Source of the DNA: Escherichia phage PNJ-9 | Sequence record: PQ100635.1 | Length of the DNA: 64,000 bases | Reading direction: 5' to 3' (one strand) | Shown: positions 7,526-42,975 of the stretch, piece by piece | Position numbering within the stretch: position 1 is the stretch's first letter | Layout of the letters: each line of letters begins with the position of its first letter | The notes under the pieces: generated by a model | What the model saw: the letters and a program-made list of their open reading frames with translations, nothing else | The model's database searches: none | What the model was told of the DNA's origin: nothing | Position numbers and translations under genes: made by a program

Positions 7526-10500
7526 TGCTAAACGAACGATATAGTTAAAAGCAACGTTTTTAACTGTGTTTTCTGTATTTCCTGTGGCATTTACAGTTAT
7601 TGTATGTCCATGGGAACCGATTGCAACAGTATGAGAATGAGCACCAATACCAACAGTATGGGAGTGGGCACCAATACCCACAGTATGTGCGTGAGCGCCT
7701 GCGCTTGCAGCAGTACCAGATATAGAGTGCGAATGTGCCCCAGAAGAAGAAGTTCCAAGCGTATTACCACCACCGGCGGATCCTCTTATAGAACCAGTAC
7801 CAGGAGCGTTGTTACTTCCCGCATAAAGAGCGCTTGTGTGGCTGTGCGCACCGGCGGTGTTTGTGGAACCGCTCAAACTATGCGTATGAGCACCAGTATT
7901 ATTACTGGTCTTAGTACCATAGTCGAAACTACTTGTCGTCTTAGTACCATAGTCAAAGCTTGATGTGGTCTTAGTACCCAAATCCGTGCTTGATGCACTT
8001 GCACTATGACTATGTGACTTAACACCGTCTGCTTCTGTACTTAATACAGCACGCCCAGATGGTTTACCCTTGATAGTTTGCCCGCGCATATCAGGCAGAG
8101 AGCCGGAAGGATACACCGCAGCTAACTTAGGATACAAGCCAACATCAAATGTTTGACCTTCCATTATGGCATAACCTTCAGGAGGTGTATCAGTAGGCCA
8201 AGGAATCGGAGCACCAATTGGATAACTTGAGACAATATCCGTCTTAAGGTTATTTATTGTGGTATTCAAGTTAGCAAAATTGCCAGAACCACCGGTGATA
8301 TTACCATCAGTACCAATACGAACATTACCAGCGCCTAATTTACCAGGAGAGTAAAAATCACCGTTTTTATTAAATTCCCAACCTAAATCCTTTATAATTG
8401 CGCCAGTAGAAACGCCATCGCCACCTTCGTGATAATGAACTCTAAAGTTACCACCATTAATTAAAGTACCAATAGAATAGCAACTATTATTTTGAACGTA
8501 TCTTTGTTTCACAATAGGAACATAAGTGCTTGTATCTGTTCTATCAATATTCATATAGAAAGGAGCACGAACGTTTTCATTATTCTGGGAAGCAAATGAA
8601 CCCGCTCCGGCTGGGCGAACAGCATCAGTACATTCTGCATCGATGTACGCCGACTGACCTATCTGCATTCTGAAATTAGGAGAAATGCGACTATTACTAG
8701 TAACAACAACAAGTTTGTTATCGTTGTCCACAGTAATCATATTACCACCAGCACCATCATCGCCTAACGTAACAGAATGACGCATTTGCACCATACCATT
8801 ATTAAGGCTAATACTAAGCGGGCGGAGATTACTTATTCCACCACTTTCACCTGCATCTTTAAGTGTAGGTATAATATGCAAAGACGCTTCAGAACGACGG
8901 AAAATAGCTCCATATTCAGCATTGTAAATACGGAAAGCATCTGCGGTATTACCGATTTTAACTTGACCGGTAATAGAACCACCACCGGATAAAACAAGCC
9001 CGTTATCCATAGTAACTTGTCCGGATAATGTACTTAATCCATTAACTCTAAGACTTCCATCGGTGATAATGCTCCCTCTTGCATTCAGTTGTCCATTAAT
9101 TTGTGTTACAACAGGTCCCACAGTTTCTGAACCGGTTGGAGCTACGCGCTGAGAATAAAAATAATATCCTTGTCCGTCAGCTACTTCAAAAACTGTTTCA
9201 CGATTACGATCGCCGGATACGTTAAATGAATTACCCCATGCTTTAACAGTTACATAACTCTTATTCTGACCTGCTCGAGTACCGCCTTCCCACATGATTT
9301 GCTTAGTGCCGTCAATACCTGAAGCTGCTTTAAAAACTAGAGAAGCATTAGTTCCATCACCATTAAAATATAATCCATTATTAAGCTTTAATGTTTGAAC
9401 AGAAGCGACGGTACCATCAGCACGCAAACTTAATGTATTTGAACCAGTGCTAATATCTAAAATTCCTGGTTCAACAAGGAGACCTTGGGACATACCAACA
9501 GCCATACGACCTGTACCACGGAAATAGTGATACATTTTAGAATTACTGTTATAACCGATATGAGTCTGACCGTCACCGTTATTATTACCATCAACATCGG
9601 TACGCGCAGTAAACATTGCTTGGTTGTTATTTGGGTAATCCCAAGTAGAACCAGAATCTCGACTATAACCAACCATCAATTTTTTAGTACTGTTAATACC
9701 ATTATTAAGAATAGTGCCGGCAGAAATACCATTCGCAACCAAATCAATAACACCGTCACGAACCCATTTAACACCAGTGTCATTATCACCAATTGCAATA
9801 CCTTTACCAAATGTGGCCAAAGGATAACGCCCTTGGGAGCCGACATCGGCAAGACCTACACCTATCGAATTAGCAACAGACATACGCCCGTCGGTGGTAT
9901 AAGACCATTGATAAACTTCAGCATTGCGCCCAGTCCAATATGAAATATTCTGTGGTTTACCTGAACGAGCATCAGCAATTTCATGGAAAATAGCAGAAGA
10001 AACATGTCCGCGGAATTTACGAAGGTAGTTTATACCATTAGTATCCAAATCTGTTTCGGTTGGAGTATATTGCCAAGTCGGTAATGAAACTAAATCATAT
10101 GCAGTATCAATATTAGTGTCCCAAGATTTAGTGCTCACATTGATATTTTTGGTAATAACTTTAGGACCAATTAAAGAACCAGCTTTAGTTTCAATATTAC
10201 TTTGAGTAACTAAATATCCATTAGATACTAATAAATTTCCGGAATCAACTTGAAAATTACCATTACGGTTAAAGGTCCAATATTTCGAAGTGCCTGTTTC
10301 ATCGATATAATGCATCTTCATTGAGCCTTCATTTACCAAGGTCCCTAATGAGAAAGTACCGTCTTTATAACGCTGCTTAAACAGCGGATGGTATTCAGAA
10401 GTAGCAGTAGTAGAACTTAAGTCGGTAAAAATAGGAGCTTTATTTAGGTGTTGATTTGCCCACGCACCATTACCGGCTGTTTTAGGTAAAAATTCAATAT

Positions 10501-36537: not shown

Positions 36538-37152
36538 ATGTTTAAAGTTAATACTTTTTATAAAATGAATTTTAAAAATGGGGATATTACTCCACGCCTT
36601 AAAAACATGTTCTCATATGACCTTATCGAGCCTTTTGAAGTTTTAGAAGTTACTGATGCCGGCTCGGTTTGTGAAATTAGAACTTCTGAAGGTAAAATTT
36701 ATCAGGCAGGTGTTGGTAAATTCAGTAATTGTTTTACTTTAATATTCTCGACTGATTTAGATGAGCATTTTATTGAATGTCATAACCATAAGGTCCATGA
36801 AGTTCCACAACAAGAAACTAAGAAAAATGGTCCGCACGAATATACCAAGGTTGAAACTCCTCACGGTGTGATGTGGCGTCATAACTCTCCTTTTGGAAGT
36901 AAAGGAACATTTGCTCAACTGCCTAAACCGTATGACGATGAAAAATACATCGTCGCCTTTTTATCTGAACAGGGTACTCAAGACCGTGGATGCCAAAGAA
37001 GTGGTTTACTAAGTGAACTTGAAGCTCATAACCAAGCACGTGAATTCGTTGAGAAAAATCCTGGTTCTGAAGCTCTAGTCATGAAAGCAATTACTCAATA
37101 TATCACTGCTCAACCTGTTGTTCATCCGGTAGAAATTAATTTCATTAAGTAG
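36538..37152 (+). CDS. hypothetical protein (204 aa)
   Basis: ORF with GAGGA RBS; no motif recognised. Confidence 0.5.
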   Translation: MFKVNTFYKMNFKNGDITPRLKNMFSYDLIEPFEVLEVTDAGSVCEIRTSEGKIYQAGVGKFSNCFTLIFSTDLDEHFIECHNHKVHEVPQQETKKNGPHEYTKVETPHGVMWRHNSPFGSKGTFAQLPKPYDDEKYIVAFLSEQGTQDRGCQRSGLLSELEAHNQAREFVEKNPGSEALVMKAITQYITAQPVVHPVEINFIK

Positions 37153-37182
37153 TTTACATCCAAGGACGGATTAGAGTATAAT
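37152..37182 (+). promoter_or_regulatory. sigma70-type early promoter
   Basis: GTTTACA 37152-37158, TATAAT 37177-37182. Confidence 0.55.
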
Positions 37183-37206: not shown

Positions 37207-37404
37207 ATGAAATTTTTAATAGCACAAACAGTCCAATTAAAAGGTGTTGGAATTCCTGGGGTGATTTTTAAAGTTCTCCCTGAATTTAAAACCGCCGCTG
37301 GAATTATCAATGAAGCGTATGCTGTTCAATGGGTTGATTGGACTTCTGACATACGTATGGGTAAAGAGTTATCTCCTATTAAAGGGTTGAAACATGTTGA
37401 ATAA
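37207..37404 (+). CDS. hypothetical protein (65 aa)
   Basis: First ORF of a translationally coupled series ending in DNA ligase. Confidence 0.45.
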   Translation: MKFLIAQTVQLKGVGIPGVIFKVLPEFKTAAGIINEAYAVQWVDWTSDIRMGKELSPIKGLKHVE

Positions 37405-37612
37405 ATTAATCCAGAAATTGTTTGGTACGGAAATGATCGAAGTTACTTATCGTGTAACAGACGTTTTTCCATATTATGCAGAAAACCGTTTAGAACCATA
37501 TGTTACGTCAATTAAAATTCCTAAAAATGACGGAAATTTATCTATCGAAGACCGTATACCTGGATATGGCCATTGGGCCGATGTTGAAATTATAAGTGTT
37601 AAAGATGTCTGA
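37394..37612 (+). CDS. hypothetical protein (72 aa)
   Basis: ORF overlapping neighbours at both ends. Confidence 0.45.
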   Translation: MLNKLIQKLFGTEMIEVTYRVTDVFPYYAENRLEPYVTSIKIPKNDGNLSIEDRIPGYGHWADVEIISVKDV

Positions 37613-38063
37613 ATTAGAAATAAGAAGCAATTTCAAATGGCCGTCATGCGCATTAAGTAACTTTGCTCAATGGCCTTTTGTTATGGATGGTATTCAATTC
37701 GGAGGACTTGAAGGATTTCTCCAAGGATGTAAGGTGAAAAATGTTGAACAGCAAAGACGCATATTTGGGATGTCTGGATTGGCTGCACAGCAAGCTGGAA
37801 GGTCTTATGCAAGAGCTCAGGACCGTGGGACTCTCTTCTGGTTAGGAGTTCCATTTTCAAGATACTCCGAAGCGTGGAAAGAATTATACACAAATGCATA
37901 TTTTGAAGCCGCGATCCAAAATAAGGGGTTTCGTGATGCCTTACAAGCCTCTAAAGGAAAAATTTTGAAGCACAGCATGGCTAGCGGTCTAACAAAAGAT
38001 GATACAATACTAACCGAAGCTGAATTTGTTGATGTGTTAAACCTATTAAGAGACTCTTTATGA
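37605..38063 (+). CDS. NADAR-domain protein (YbiA-like; putative ADP-ribose/N-glycosidic hydrolase)
   Basis: 152 aa from ATG 37605; SNFAQWPFVMDGIQFGGLEGFLQGCK resembles the YbiA/NADAR signature SNFaaWPi.vDG..wpt.EhyfQA.K as recalled. Confidence 0.55.
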   Translation: MSELEIRSNFKWPSCALSNFAQWPFVMDGIQFGGLEGFLQGCKVKNVEQQRRIFGMSGLAAQQAGRSYARAQDRGTLFWLGVPFSRYSEAWKELYTNAYFEAAIQNKGFRDALQASKGKILKHSMASGLTKDDTILTEAEFVDVLNLLRDSL

Positions 38064-38875
38064 AGCCTACTATTTTGACTGATATTGATGGTGTATGTTT
38101 AAGCTGGCAATCTGGACTTCCTTATTTTGCCCAAAAATATAATCTTCCATTAGAACATATTTTAAAAATGATTCAGGACGAAAAATTTATTTCTCCTGGT
38201 AAACTGTTCAATACCGACGATAACCTTGGTAAACAATTAATAGAAAAATATAATAGCTCTGATTTTATTCGTTACTTAGCGCCTTATTCGGATGCTCTTC
38301 GAGTTATCAATAAACTAAAAGAAGACTATAATTTTGTAGCCGTGACGGCGCTAGGTGATTCAATTGATGCTCGATTGAATAGACAATTTAATTTGAATGC
38401 TTTGTTCCCAGGCGCTTTCTCTGAAGTAATGATGTGTGGTCATGATTCGTCAAAGGAACAATTATTTGAACTAGCTAAAACAAAATATAACGTGATTTGT
38501 TACGTTGACGATTTAGCTCATCACTGTGACCATGCGGCAGAAATTCTTAATGTACCGATTTATTGGTTGGCTCGTGGTGAACGTGATGCCATTCCTCGTA
38601 CTGCACAACGTGTACACACGTGGGATGATATTGAATCTCGTTTGGTTCCACCTGAGCATAAGTCAGATTCAGATCGTGAAGACCTTTTAAAACGATTGGC
38701 GGATTTGCTTAAAGAATCTGGTACAACAAGTCCAGGTGCATGGCCTAATCAAATTGGCACTCCGTCGAATCCGTATACCTGGCGCACCCCAGGACCAACC
38801 AATATGCAGCCATGGTGGACGATTCAAAACTTTCCTTTAGATTCGTCTAAATGGACTTGGTCTATAAATTGTTAA
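38060..38875 (+). CDS. HAD-superfamily hydrolase-like protein with Trp/Pro-rich C-terminal tail
   Basis: 271 aa; N-terminal HAD motif I (ILTDIDGV), candidate motif IV (YVDDLAHH); start overlaps NADAR stop (ATGA). Confidence 0.5.
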   Translation: MKPTILTDIDGVCLSWQSGLPYFAQKYNLPLEHILKMIQDEKFISPGKLFNTDDNLGKQLIEKYNSSDFIRYLAPYSDALRVINKLKEDYNFVAVTALGDSIDARLNRQFNLNALFPGAFSEVMMCGHDSSKEQLFELAKTKYNVICYVDDLAHHCDHAAEILNVPIYWLARGERDAIPRTAQRVHTWDDIESRLVPPEHKSDSDREDLLKRLADLLKESGTTSPGAWPNQIGTPSNPYTWRTPGPTNMQPWWTIQNFPLDSSKWTWSINC

Positions 38876-38884
38876 GGGTTAATT

Positions 38885-39154
38885 ATGTTTGTAGTTCATG
38901 ATATTACAGATGGTAAAAACACAACGCGTGACTACGGTCACGTTAACATGTTCTTTCGAGACTGGCCATTGTTTCGTTCAGTAAAAGACGCAGAAATATT
39001 TAAAGAGTGTGTTGAACAAGGGTTCATCTACATTTCAGAATATTATGTTGAAGGTCTTGGTAAATGGATTACCACTTATCAGAAAACGTTGAAATCGCTT
39101 CTAGATGAAGTGGCTTATAATAGAACCGTAACCAAAATCGAGGACATTAAATGA
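38885..39154 (+). CDS. hypothetical protein (89 aa)
   Basis: ORF overlapping ligase start; no motif recognised. Confidence 0.5.
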   Translation: MFVVHDITDGKNTTRDYGHVNMFFRDWPLFRSVKDAEIFKECVEQGFIYISEYYVEGLGKWITTYQKTLKSLLDEVAYNRTVTKIEDIK

Positions 39155-40644
39155 TTTTAGATATTTTAAACCAAATAGCTGCGATCGGTTCTACTAAAAC
39201 AAAACAGGAAATCCTTAAGAAAAATAAGGACAACAAATTACTTGAACGTGTGTATCGTTTAACATATGCACGTGGTATCCAGTATTATATTAAGAAATGG
39301 CCAGGACCAGGTGAAAGGTCTCAAGCGTATGGTCTTCTTGAATTAGATGACATGTTGGATTTTATTGAGTTCACACTAGCCACTCGTAAACTCACTGGTA
39401 ATGCTGCAATTAAAGAGCTCATGGGTTATATCGCTGACGGTAAACCTGATGATGTAGAAGTCCTTCGTCGTGTAATGATGCGCGACCTTGAAGTAGGTGC
39501 TTCAGTGTCTATCGCGAATAAGGTGTGGCCTGGACTTATTCAATTGCAACCACAGATGTTAGCATCTGCATATGATGAGAAATTGATTACTAAAAATATT
39601 AAATGGCCTGCATTTGCCCAATTAAAAGCAGATGGTGCTCGTTGTTTCGCTGAAGTTCGCGATGATGGTGTTCAATTCTTTTCTCGTGCCGGTAACGAAT
39701 ATCACGGTCTTACTCTATTAGCTGATGAACTAATGGAAATGACTAAAGAAGCTCGTGAAAGACACCCTAATGGGGTTTTAATCGACGGTGAATTAGTTTA
39801 TCATTCATTTGATATTAAAAAGGCTGTGAGCTCAGGAAATGACCTGTCATTCTTATTTGGTGATAATGAAGAATCTGAAGAAGTACAAGTTGCGGACCGT
39901 AGCACTTCAAACGGTTTAGCAAATAAATCTCTTCAAGGGACTATTTCTCCTAAAGAAGCGGAAGGTATGGTTCTTCAAGCCTGGGACTATGTTCCTTTAG
40001 ATGAAGTCTATTCTGACGGCAAAATTAAAGGTCAGAAATACGATGTTCGTTTTGCTGCTCTTGAAAATATGGCTGAAGGCTTTAAACGAATTGAACCTAT
40101 CGAAAACCAGTTAGTTCGTAATCTTGATGAAGCTAAAGTGGTTTATAAAAAATATGTTGACCAAGGTCTTGAAGGTATTATCCTTAAAAACCGTGATTCA
40201 TATTGGGAAAACAAACGCTCTAAGAACCTAATTAAATTTAAAGAAGTTATTGATATCGCTTTAGAAGTTGTAGGATACTATGAACACTCTAAAGACCCTA
40301 ACAAATTAGGTGGTGTCGAACTCGTATCACGTTGTCGTCGTATTACAACCGATTGTGGTTCAGGGTTTAAAGATACAACTCATAAAACAGTTGACGGTGT
40401 AAAGGTTCTTATTCCTTTAGACGAGCGTCATGATTTAGACCGTGAACGATTAATGACCGAAGCTCGTGAAGGTAAATTAATCGGACGTATCGCTGATTGT
40501 GAATGTAATGGTTGGGTTCATTCTAAAGGCCGTGAAGGCACTGTAGGTATTTTCCTTCCAATTATTAAAGGGTTCCGTTTTGATAAAACAGAAGCGGATT
40601 CGTTTGAAGACGTATTTGGACCGTGGTCCCAGACAGGTTTATAA
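39151..40644 (+). CDS. 30: ATP-dependent DNA ligase gp30
   Basis: 497 aa; near-identical N-terminus to T4 ligase, adenylation motif KADGAR, C-terminal CECNGW. Confidence 0.92.
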   Translation: MILDILNQIAAIGSTKTKQEILKKNKDNKLLERVYRLTYARGIQYYIKKWPGPGERSQAYGLLELDDMLDFIEFTLATRKLTGNAAIKELMGYIADGKPDDVEVLRRVMMRDLEVGASVSIANKVWPGLIQLQPQMLASAYDEKLITKNIKWPAFAQLKADGARCFAEVRDDGVQFFSRAGNEYHGLTLLADELMEMTKEARERHPNGVLIDGELVYHSFDIKKAVSSGNDLSFLFGDNEESEEVQVADRSTSNGLANKSLQGTISPKEAEGMVLQAWDYVPLDEVYSDGKIKGQKYDVRFAALENMAEGFKRIEPIENQLVRNLDEAKVVYKKYVDQGLEGIILKNRDSYWENKRSKNLIKFKEVIDIALEVVGYYEHSKDPNKLGGVELVSRCRRITTDCGSGFKDTTHKTVDGVKVLIPLDERHDLDRERLMTEAREGKLIGRIADCECNGWVHSKGREGTVGIFLPIIKGFRFDKTEADSFEDVFGPWSQTGL

Positions 40645-40832
40645 TGAAAGCTTATTTAGAAACAGTTATTGTAGCTAAGAAGGATGGTGGAGATGTTTCC
40701 ACCTCTTGCTCTCAGATTATATTAGATTTTCCTAATAACGATTCCTATAATATTTTTATGGACAATTTTGATAAGTACGAAAAAGGCCCTAATTTTGAAG
40801 TTTATCGTACTTTGCTCCCGATTGTGGATTAA
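40644..40832 (+). CDS. hypothetical protein (62 aa)
   Basis: ATG overlaps ligase stop (TAATG); track ORF 40623 is an upstream extension. Confidence 0.4.
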   Translation: MKAYLETVIVAKKDGGDVSTSCSQIILDFPNNDSYNIFMDNFDKYEKGPNFEVYRTLLPIVD

Positions 40833-40887: not shown

Positions 40888-42975
40888 ATGTCTGAACAAT
40901 TAAATGAAGTGTTTGAATCTGAAGGCAGTCTTCCTGTCGTCAATTTGAACCCTAAAGCTAAAGTTCCACAAGTCTGGAAAATTGGTGATATCGATACAAA
41001 CATCGTAGTTCGCTTATTCTCTTACCTTTCCGAAGGTGATGCTGTAAAACAAGTTAAACTTGGCGACAAATACGCTCATGTTGTTATTATGAGTCTATCT
41101 GAAAAGGGCAATCTCGCTGAATTGAAAAATGGCCTTGGTCCTGCTCCTATTGATGCAATCAACACCATTTTCAATACAGTATATGAACAGGTTAAAGCTC
41201 TTCGTATGGATGCAGTTCTGTTCCGATTCCCTACCAAGAAATTGAAAGGACGCGGACAACAACTTCAAACTCTTCTTGCTCGTTTAGTTTCTACTAAAAC
41301 CGGTGGTCGTTTTAAAGTATTGTCGGCAATGTATCAATTCACAGGTAAACACACCTATGTGATGATGGTTCGTAAAAATGCCAACATTGAAGATATTAAA
41401 GGCATCCCTAACATTAACACAGAGTTGTACACGAAAGTAGATTCTGATGTTGGCGAAGTTTATGTGAGTAAAAAGACCGGTGAAAAGGTCACCAAAGAAA
41501 CGGCTATCGCTGGTTCTATTGCTGCTGTAGAAGAAAAACGTAAAGATAAGCCTGTTATTGCTCGTACTAAAATTTCTCGTCGTGCTATTGCAGCAAGTCA
41601 ATCTTTAGAAGCTGACCGACAAGAAGGTGAGTTATTCCAGAAATACGAAAATTCTGCTAAAGAAGTTAGTGGCCCAGCTACAGCCGAATTACTTCCTGAA
41701 GCATATGAAATTGTACTAGCCCAAGCATCGTCCACAGCAAAAGGCACTTTAGTTGCTGATATCGAAAATAAGATTTATAATCGTATTGATGAATCCTTTA
41801 AATTTGCTGATGAAGTTTCTTATGGTAGTGTTATTAAGCCGACTTTAGAAAAGTTTGCTAAGAAAATTAAAACTGAAAAAACAACATCTGTTAAAGCATT
41901 AGCCGCTTTTGTTGAAGCTGCAAACGAAATTGCAGACTCTATTAGAGACGAATGGTTTGAAGATTTTAGACGTGATAATTTCCAACTGCCTGACGATGTT
42001 TTAGCTGAAGTATCTGAAAGAACTTGGAAACAACGTAAATCAGCGTTCTTGTCTAATGTGATGTATACTTATGCACGAGAATCGGCTAGAGGCACCTTTA
42101 ATATAACAATGAATCGGGACCCTAAACAATACTCTGTTGCTGAAAAACGAGCTATTCGTGAATATGCCTCTTCTGCGTATATCGATATCAATAATATGTT
42201 GTTAGGTCGTTATAAACCAGATTTTTACGATGTTGCAGATGAAGATGAAGTTAAACGCGCTATTGATGGTCTTGATTCGGCGTTTTTAAATGGAGACCGT
42301 TTACCTGAAGGACTAACGTTATATAGAGCTCAGTCTATCAGAATGCCTATTTACGAAGCAATGGTTAAAAATAAGGTATTCTACTTCAGAAACTATGTTT
42401 CCACTTCACTAGCTCCTATTATTTTCGGTGGGTTTAAAGAGAACGTTGCCCTTGGACTTGCTCCTGAAGAAGTTCGCAAAGAGCTTAACATTGACAATAA
42501 TGACGAAGGTGTTACTATTTCTCCTAGTCAAGTAAGAACAGCTATGCATGCACCAGAACAAATCCGTGTTAACGTTGGATGGGCTATTGATGGCGCCCAT
42601 AAAGTTAACGTGATTTATCCAGGACAGTTGAGTAATCACCCTAATGAGCAAGAAATTATTTTGCCTAGAGGCATTCTCTTGCAGATAAATAAAATTACAG
42701 ATGCGTCATCTGACACTGGTGCAGGTTTAGAATCCAACCTTAAATTTATTCAAGCTGAAGTCATGTCCTCGGACCAGTTGGACGAAGCTGTCATTTACGA
42801 TGGTGATGTTCTCATGGAAACAGGCGAGGTAGTTGCTATGACGGGTGAAATCGAATCAGATGAGCCGGTATCTTTTTCCTCATTTGTAGAAAAAACTAGT
42901 GCACCTAAAGGTTTGAAATTGTTAGCATCTTTAATGGATTTAGAATCAGTTCCGTTTAAATTTATCCAAGGATAG
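40888..42975 (+). CDS. alt: ADP-ribosyltransferase Alt (virion-packaged, modifies host RNA polymerase)
   Basis: 695 aa; position between gene 30 and gene 54 and partial sequence similarity to T4 Alt as recalled (ISRRAIA.SQSLE, GLTLYR). Confidence 0.75.
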   Translation: MSEQLNEVFESEGSLPVVNLNPKAKVPQVWKIGDIDTNIVVRLFSYLSEGDAVKQVKLGDKYAHVVIMSLSEKGNLAELKNGLGPAPIDAINTIFNTVYEQVKALRMDAVLFRFPTKKLKGRGQQLQTLLARLVSTKTGGRFKVLSAMYQFTGKHTYVMMVRKNANIEDIKGIPNINTELYTKVDSDVGEVYVSKKTGEKVTKETAIAGSIAAVEEKRKDKPVIARTKISRRAIAASQSLEADRQEGELFQKYENSAKEVSGPATAELLPEAYEIVLAQASSTAKGTLVADIENKIYNRIDESFKFADEVSYGSVIKPTLEKFAKKIKTEKTTSVKALAAFVEAANEIADSIRDEWFEDFRRDNFQLPDDVLAEVSERTWKQRKSAFLSNVMYTYARESARGTFNITMNRDPKQYSVAEKRAIREYASSAYIDINNMLLGRYKPDFYDVADEDEVKRAIDGLDSAFLNGDRLPEGLTLYRAQSIRMPIYEAMVKNKVFYFRNYVSTSLAPIIFGGFKENVALGLAPEEVRKELNIDNNDEGVTISPSQVRTAMHAPEQIRVNVGWAIDGAHKVNVIYPGQLSNHPNEQEIILPRGILLQINKITDASSDTGAGLESNLKFIQAEVMSSDQLDEAVIYDGDVLMETGEVVAMTGEIESDEPVSFSSFVEKTSAPKGLKLLASLMDLESVPFKFIQG

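Follow-up and report, generated by a model that had tools for sequence, protein, structure and literature searches.

We found that the gene adfN (T4 gene 30.3) of Escherichia phage PNJ-9 very probably encodes a NADAR enzyme that acts against DarTG1, and that gp30.2, the HAD phosphatase encoded just downstream of it, is a separate enzyme that is not needed for this counter-defence. The window analyzed was a stretch of 64,000 nucleotides (nt) of this phage (PQ100635.1), and both genes lie at positions 37207–40644, in a chain of open reading frames (ORFs) that ends with the DNA ligase gene. The present analysis supplies the orthology, the fold, the conserved residues, the layout of the genes, and the adjacency counts; enzymatic activity and phenotypes come from published work on T4. 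A sequence-only reading of the region had suggested that its NADAR protein counters DarT1. This central claim is correct and was already known for the T4 orthologue, for which it was published in 2025 from deletions, catalytic mutants, and in vitro assays and then re-confirmed by a genome-wide transposon screen (PMC11825919; PMC11125620; bioRxiv 10.1101/2025.11.20.689424).

The source phage is assigned by sequence to the RB69-like T-even phages (Mosigvirus). The 3.4-kb region was 100% identical to that of Escherichia phage PNJ-6 (Mosigvirus). Identity to the remaining listed records was 97–98.6%, and several of these are likewise placed in Mosigvirus, the T-even group to which RB69 belongs. 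The ORF at 37605–38063 is the orthologue of T4 gp30.3 (AdfN) and an intact allele. Its product was 96% identical to T4 gp30.3 over all 152 amino acids (aa) and matched PF08010 (Phage_30_3) over model positions 1–138 of 138, with a score of 230.7 bits where the cut-off is 36. The ORF can be extended to a GTG start at 37596, but from the ATG at 37605 the protein has 152 aa, as T4 gp30.3 does. The string quoted as NADAR-like in the sequence-only reading, SNFAQWPFVMDGIQFGGLEGFLQGCK, corresponds to aa 18–43 of this protein. Residues E36, K43, and H123 were kept in the window AdfN and were invariant in 57 relatives, down to ~35% identity, so that the catalytic residues whose loss would have spoken against a NADAR were retained in the alignment. 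The roles of E36 and K43 are known from the mutants E36A and K43A (PMC11825919), and that of an H123-type histidine in the last strand from the description of the subfamily (PMC11125620).

The structure prediction agreed with this assignment. The AlphaFold model, built from the alignment of the 57 relatives, had a predicted local distance difference test score (pLDDT) of 92.7 and a predicted template modelling score (pTM) of 0.88, and the window AdfN is modelled as a small stand-alone enzyme with the NADAR fold. The Foldseek search of the PDB revealed that the top three matches were all NADARs: YbiA (2b3w; E = 4e-5, TM-score 0.67), PnNADAR of Phytophthora (8bau), and the DarG1-type protein of Geobacter lovleyi (8bat). 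Beyond these three, no match had a probability >0.1, and the same three structures have previously been reported as matches of AdfN-T4. The comparison with YbiA and other NADAR structures proposed earlier thus returned them as the sole credible matches and, together with the PF08010 orthology and the conserved catalytic residues, bore out the NADAR assignment. At the sequence level, PF08010 was the sole match of the window protein in the Pfam and NCBIfam scans, and a single-sequence search against solved structures gave no match; the AdfN family profile matched YbiA at E = 0.004. The window protein matched only positions 126–272 of the 296-position phrog_652 profile, which suggests that some family members bear an N-terminal extension of ~125 aa or an extra domain.

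The function of this enzyme has been established in T4. Johannesman et al. (Nat Commun 2025, PMC11825919) traced the ability of T2 and T4 to resist DarTG1 to gene 30.3, which they renamed adfN, and reported that T4 and T2 with an adfN deletion form no plaques on DarTG1 hosts. Ectopic expression of AdfN-T4 rescued RB69, and the rescue was weakened by E36A and K43A. Purified AdfN alone stripped ADP-ribose from DarT1-modified DNA in vitro; it did not bind DarT1 and had no effect on the thymidine-specific DarTG2 (PMC11825919). In an independent study, T4 gp30.3 hydrolyzed guanosine-ADP-ribose in vitro, and its branch was described as NADARs with a histidine in the last strand (PMC11125620). A genome-wide transposon screen of T4 then showed that 30.3 insertions are lost on DarTG1 hosts (bioRxiv 10.1101/2025.11.20.689424). 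In the table of that screen, which compares DarTG1 with the empty vector, 30.3 had a log2 fold change (log2FC) of -7.25 and an adjusted p value (padj) of 0.

The window AdfN resembles AdfN-T4, the characterized PF08010 member, in its length of 152 aa, in having 30.4 upstream and 30.2 downstream, followed by the ligase gene and alt, in E36, K43, and H123, and in its C-terminal helix. The two differ in six substitutions and in the affiliation of the phages that carry them: the window phage is a Mosigvirus, and in the type member of Mosigvirus, RB69, the allele is frameshifted and weakened. In RB69 an extra T truncates AdfN after T137, and the C-terminal helix is lost (PMC11825919); RB69 is sensitive to DarTG1 because of this one-base insertion. 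The window allele does not have the extra T (RB69 9231–9311 compared with window 38000–38030), and the C-terminal helix was modelled at its residues 138–151. The frameshift was present in two of the 608 phage records that contain the segment, both of them RB69 records, and the search for this allele in IMG/VR gave 0 matches. The DarTG1 sensitivity of RB69 therefore looks peculiar to that isolate and not a trait of Mosigvirus. Since the window allele is full length, unlike that of RB69, the phage is predicted to be resistant to DarTG1.

T4 has an internal, out-of-frame ORF within this gene, 30.3' (75 aa). It is interrupted in the window, where 34 aa are left (37741–37845), and this reduction rules it out as a conserved gene; 30.3' is probably not a real gene.

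Two other kinds of NADAR proteins are close enough to be compared. The DarG1-type antitoxins (G. lovleyi, 8bat) share with AdfN the fold, the guanine-ADP-ribose glycohydrolase chemistry, and the lack of toxin binding. In contrast to them, the phage gene is an orphan with no linked DarT, it has His in the last strand where their catalytic residue is Asp (PMC11125620), and T4 AdfN was unable to replace DarG1 in uninfected cells. The second is E. coli YbiA (2b3w), an N-glycosidase of the NADAR/YbiA subfamily, which has the N-terminal SNF...E..Q..K motif in common with AdfN. YbiA differs from it in having only 19% identity, a Glu in the last strand where AdfN has His, and another physiological role, and it gives no protection against DarT1 in vivo (PMC11125620).

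A comparative-genomics survey has proposed an alternative for phage NADARs generally (PMC9503650), and that YbiA was the best structural match here speaks for it: the main substrates would be intermediates of the riboflavin pathway or soluble derivatives of ADP-ribose, with the enzyme acting as a YbiA-like N-glycosidase or degrading an immune signal, and not ADP-ribosylated DNA. We consider this very unlikely as the main function, given that ADP-ribose is removed from DNA directly in vitro and that adfN deletions lose plaquing specifically on DarTG1 hosts; on a host without a defence system, moreover, 30.3 was non-essential in the T4 transposon data, with 27 of its 28 sites hit. Such an activity is possible as a second activity of AdfN.

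For AdfN as an anti-DarTG1 enzyme, we propose the following course. The sigma-70-type promoter (37153–37182) would drive early transcription of the unit that begins at ~37153, and AdfN would probably be made early, with adfN translated through coupling to the upstream 30.4 across their 8-nt overlap. In an infected DarTG1 host, DarT1 would ADP-ribosylate guanines of the phage DNA and replication would be blocked. AdfN would then cleave the N-glycosidic bond between guanine and ADP-ribose through its E36/K43/H123 site; ADP-ribose would be released, the DNA would be replicable again, and replication could proceed. The window enzyme is expected neither to bind the toxin nor to act on the thymidine adducts of DarT2. 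In this course gp30.2 would be a separate, catalytically competent, capped HAD phosphatase, presumably with a small-molecule substrate, whose genomic partner is the DNA ligase gene.

The sequence-only reading had gone further and joined the NADAR and HAD genes in one coupled module. As a rival explanation, this is a two-enzyme counter-defence in which the HAD protein would deal with the ADP-ribose or phosphate product once it is released, or would finish the repair ahead of ligation. The arrangement invites it: the two genes have 4 nt (ATGA) in common and lie in one operon with the ligase gene, and AdfN-T4 seemingly needs some T-even factor. Adjacency was kept in 13 of the 13 close T-even relatives whose sequence extended far enough, as well as in some Acinetobacter- and Aeromonas-type loci. 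The T4 transposon table largely refuted it. Insertions in 30.2 (71 sites) were neutral on DarTG1 hosts (log2FC -0.12, p = 0.61), against -7.25 for 30.3, and so were those in 30.1 (-0.01), alt (-0.01), and 61.2/adfA (-0.34, not significant); no gene other than 30.3 and, with a weaker effect, 30.4 was significant. In addition, purified AdfN by itself de-ADP-ribosylates DNA in vitro.

Gene order pointed the same way. A gp30.2-type HAD gene was found within 6 kb in eight of the 66 distant NADAR loci (37–47% identity) and abutted the NADAR gene in one of the 66. The ligase gene, by comparison, lay just downstream of the gp30.2-type HAD gene in 72 of 77 loci, with a NADAR gene nearby in 37 of the 77. 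Outside the close T-even group, the ligase gene was kept at 58 of 62 HAD loci and a NADAR gene was nearby at 23. On nine genome-size contigs, 54 kb or more separated the NADAR and HAD genes. Adjacency of NADAR and HAD genes is thus limited to some lineages. These loci are not independent samples, but the trend is plain: it is the ligase gene, and not the NADAR gene, that the HAD gene accompanies. A joint module is thus not supported, and we regard it as extremely improbable; the T4 transposon data and the gene order indicate that gp30.2 is not needed for the counter-defence against DarTG1. The HAD–ligase pair, sometimes with 30.1 in between, is kept even among very divergent T4-like phages, in which other small genes nearby come and go.

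Several points weigh against the reading of adfN as an anti-DarTG1 NADAR beside an independent gp30.2. The activity and the phenotypes of the window allele are carried over from work on T4, and the two proteins differ at 6 of 152 positions (K11R, M56L, E89P, I120V, M125I, and V142I, in window-to-T4 order). The transposon data likewise come from T4 and, as stored, comprise a single sample for each condition (R1 files only). The loci counted for adjacency are not independent of one another phylogenetically, and a redundant or conditional role for 30.2 is possible. The window AdfN itself had no match to PF08719 (NADAR) at E ≤ 0.1, the Pfam search that the sequence-only reading had proposed as a check and whose failure it would have taken as a refutation. 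The protein did lack the match; as a refutation, however, this is a false negative, because 18 of the 57 AdfN relatives do match PF08719 (best E = 1.5e-7). We did not take it against the NADAR assignment because the family profile, the fold, and the published experiments agree, and PF08010 is best described from these sequence comparisons as a divergent NADAR branch that forms a separate Pfam family. A literal demand for a Pfam NADAR hit would wrongly discard a true NADAR. Finally, AdfN-T4 fails against DarT1 in uninfected cells, and it rescues T5 and Bas25 only slightly (PMC11825919).

This weakness outside T-even infection suggests that some T-even-specific factor or context is at play. A second rival explanation takes gp30.4, and not gp30.2, to be a T-even-specific helper of AdfN, which would explain why AdfN-T4 is active in RB69 and not in uninfected cells, T5, or Bas25. 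In the T4 transposon table, 30.4 was the one gene besides adfN to be significantly conditionally essential on DarTG1 hosts (log2FC -1.79, padj 0.014). Its 8-nt overlap with the start of adfN is present in the window as well as in T4 and RB69, and RB69, which AdfN-T4 rescues, encodes gp30.4. The effect is, however, ~40-fold weaker than that of adfN, as polarity or lost coupling would give, and 30.5, farther upstream, also trends downward on these hosts (-3.0, not significant). In distant phages gp30.4 was not detected beside NADAR, in a single-sequence search only. We found that adfN is without a good Shine–Dalgarno sequence of its own. The depletion of 30.4 is most simply explained, and is probably caused, by polarity or lost translational coupling onto adfN, which the weaker depletion of 30.4 and the non-significant trend of 30.5 fit, and a helper role of gp30.4 seems quite unlikely.

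The other protein, gp30.2 (38060–38875), had been assigned to the HAD superfamily from two short motifs, and this assignment held. It is a true HAD-superfamily member, to all appearances catalytically intact and capped: all four motifs are kept, and the Rossmannoid HAD core carries a helical C1 cap. The DIDGV motif corresponds to aa 8–12 and YVDDL to aa 148–152. Among 57 relatives, D8 and D10 (motif I) and K132 (motif III) were invariant, and T96 (motif II) and D150/D151 (motif IV) were present in at least 90%. Curated hidden Markov models gave little: in Pfam, HAD_2 stayed below threshold (16 bits, cut-off 23.8), and in NCBIfam the protein matched just TIGR01428, with 12.8 bits against a cut-off of 125.4.

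Its nearest known relatives are found among the HAD IA phosphatases, including the 5'(3')-deoxyribonucleotidases (NT5C; 2jao and 3bwv), with which gp30.2 shares the Rossmannoid core, the helical C1 cap, and the four HAD motifs. The best match in a single-sequence search of solved structures was a deoxyribonucleotidase (E = 0.11), and 10 of the 57 relatives had weak Pfam matches to NT5C (PF06941). Deoxyribonucleotidase-like structures were among the top gp30.2 matches and had the highest identity (17–20%), with scores about equal to those of other HAD IA enzymes. From what is known of HAD enzymology, the DxD and DD motifs favour a Mg-dependent phosphatase over a dehalogenase. A literature search on gp30.2 found nothing relevant.

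The Trp/Pro-rich tail of gp30.2 (aa ~223–271; window 38726–38875) is predicted to be disordered and was hypervariable between genera. It differs between T4 and the window phage and is missing in many homologues of 200–220 aa. A TWRTPG motif is common to the tails of the window phage, RB69, and T4. Many other tails have a short C-terminal motif, approximately GIEYL-x2-QPT (in T4, GGIEYLYNRPT), which the window phage and RB69 are without. One homologue of 302 aa, from a 1.4-kb metagenome contig, is an apparent fusion of the gp30.2 HAD core with the DUF3045 domain of gp30.1, a hint at a possible joint action of 30.2 and 30.1; it may also stem from a frameshift or from faulty assembly.

The genes of the region and the promoter-like sites are shown in Table 1. 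The region is syntenic with T4 and RB69, in the block 30.5-30.4-30.3-30.2-30.1-30(ligase)-alt.1-alt; on the T4 map the minus strand carries this block. The sequence-only reading could not establish if an orthologue exists in T4 at the corresponding place; T4 has orthologues of every gene, in identical order. The ORF positions, peptide strings, and start/stop overlaps that it gave were all present, with every ORF on the plus strand, and Pfam matches to PF01068 and PF03496 confirmed the ligase at the end of the operon and the ADP-ribosyltransferase alt as its neighbour. As read from the sequence, 30.5 and 30.4 overlap by 11 nt, 30.4 and 30.3 by 8 nt (ATGTCTGA), and 30.3 and 30.2 by 4 nt (ATGA); a gap of 9 nt sets 30.2 and 30.1 apart, and 30.1 overlaps the ligase gene by 4 nt (ATGA).

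Table 1. Genes and promoter-like sites in and around the adfN region of the window
Feature	Position	Strand	Evidence
Sigma-70/T4-early-type promoter-like site, TTTACA-18-TATAAT	37153..37182	+	11/12 matches, best-scoring in scan
gp30.5 homologue, 65 aa	37207..37404	+	phrog_1690 E = 2e-28; position as T4 30.5
gp30.4 homologue, 72 aa	37394..37612	+	phrog_2042 E = 2e-34
adfN (T4 gene 30.3), predicted NADAR, 152 aa	37605..38063	+	PF08010 230.7 bits; 96% identity to T4 gp30.3
gp30.2, C1-capped HAD phosphatase-like; core aa 1–~222, disordered tail aa ~223–271	38060..38875	+	
gp30.1 (DUF3045), 89 aa	38885..39154	+	PF11243 E = 1.4e-26
T4 middle (MotA-box)-type motif, GCTT-N15-TATAAT	39097..39121	+	Pattern search; inside 30.1, upstream of ligase gene
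Gene 30, ATP-dependent DNA ligase	39151..40644	+	PF01068 E = 1.9e-26; ligase annotation in T4, RB69, PNJ-6
alt.1 homologue, small ORF	40644..40832	+	CDS annotated at equivalent position in PNJ-6, RB69
alt, packaged RNA-polymerase ADP-ribosyltransferase	40888..42975	+	PF03496 E = 1.7e-27; annotation in T4, RB69, PNJ-6

The early-type site lies just upstream of the first ORF of the chain (37207), and its counterpart in the closely related phage SA79RD carries a promoter annotation. It is likely to be the start of the 30.5-to-ligase transcription unit, if it is used as a promoter. A site equivalent to the MotA-box-type motif is also annotated in SA79RD, and its function as a promoter is presumed. 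The wider pattern GCTT-N11-15-TATAAT occurred eight times in the window, always on the plus strand, where chance would give 1.7. The early-type site is directly preceded by a 204-aa ORF (36538–37152) that matched phrog_17531 and had no Pfam match; T4 and RB69 carry an unrelated gp30.6 of ~95 aa in its place, and this appears to be a variable slot for accessory genes.

The RB69-like phage studied here is thus predicted to resist DarTG1, unlike RB69 itself. The HAD gene is set apart from the counter-defence, and attention moves to the conserved HAD–ligase pair and to 30.4. The gp30.2 gene has a conserved place immediately upstream of the ligase gene, and its product bears a fast-evolving, disordered Trp/Pro-rich tail. 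It is conceivable, if not likely, that either gp30.2 is a ligase-associated or nucleotide-pool enzyme with an undescribed role in host conflict, or gp30.4 is the T-even factor for full AdfN activity. If true, either reading would give a new function to a conserved T4 gene.

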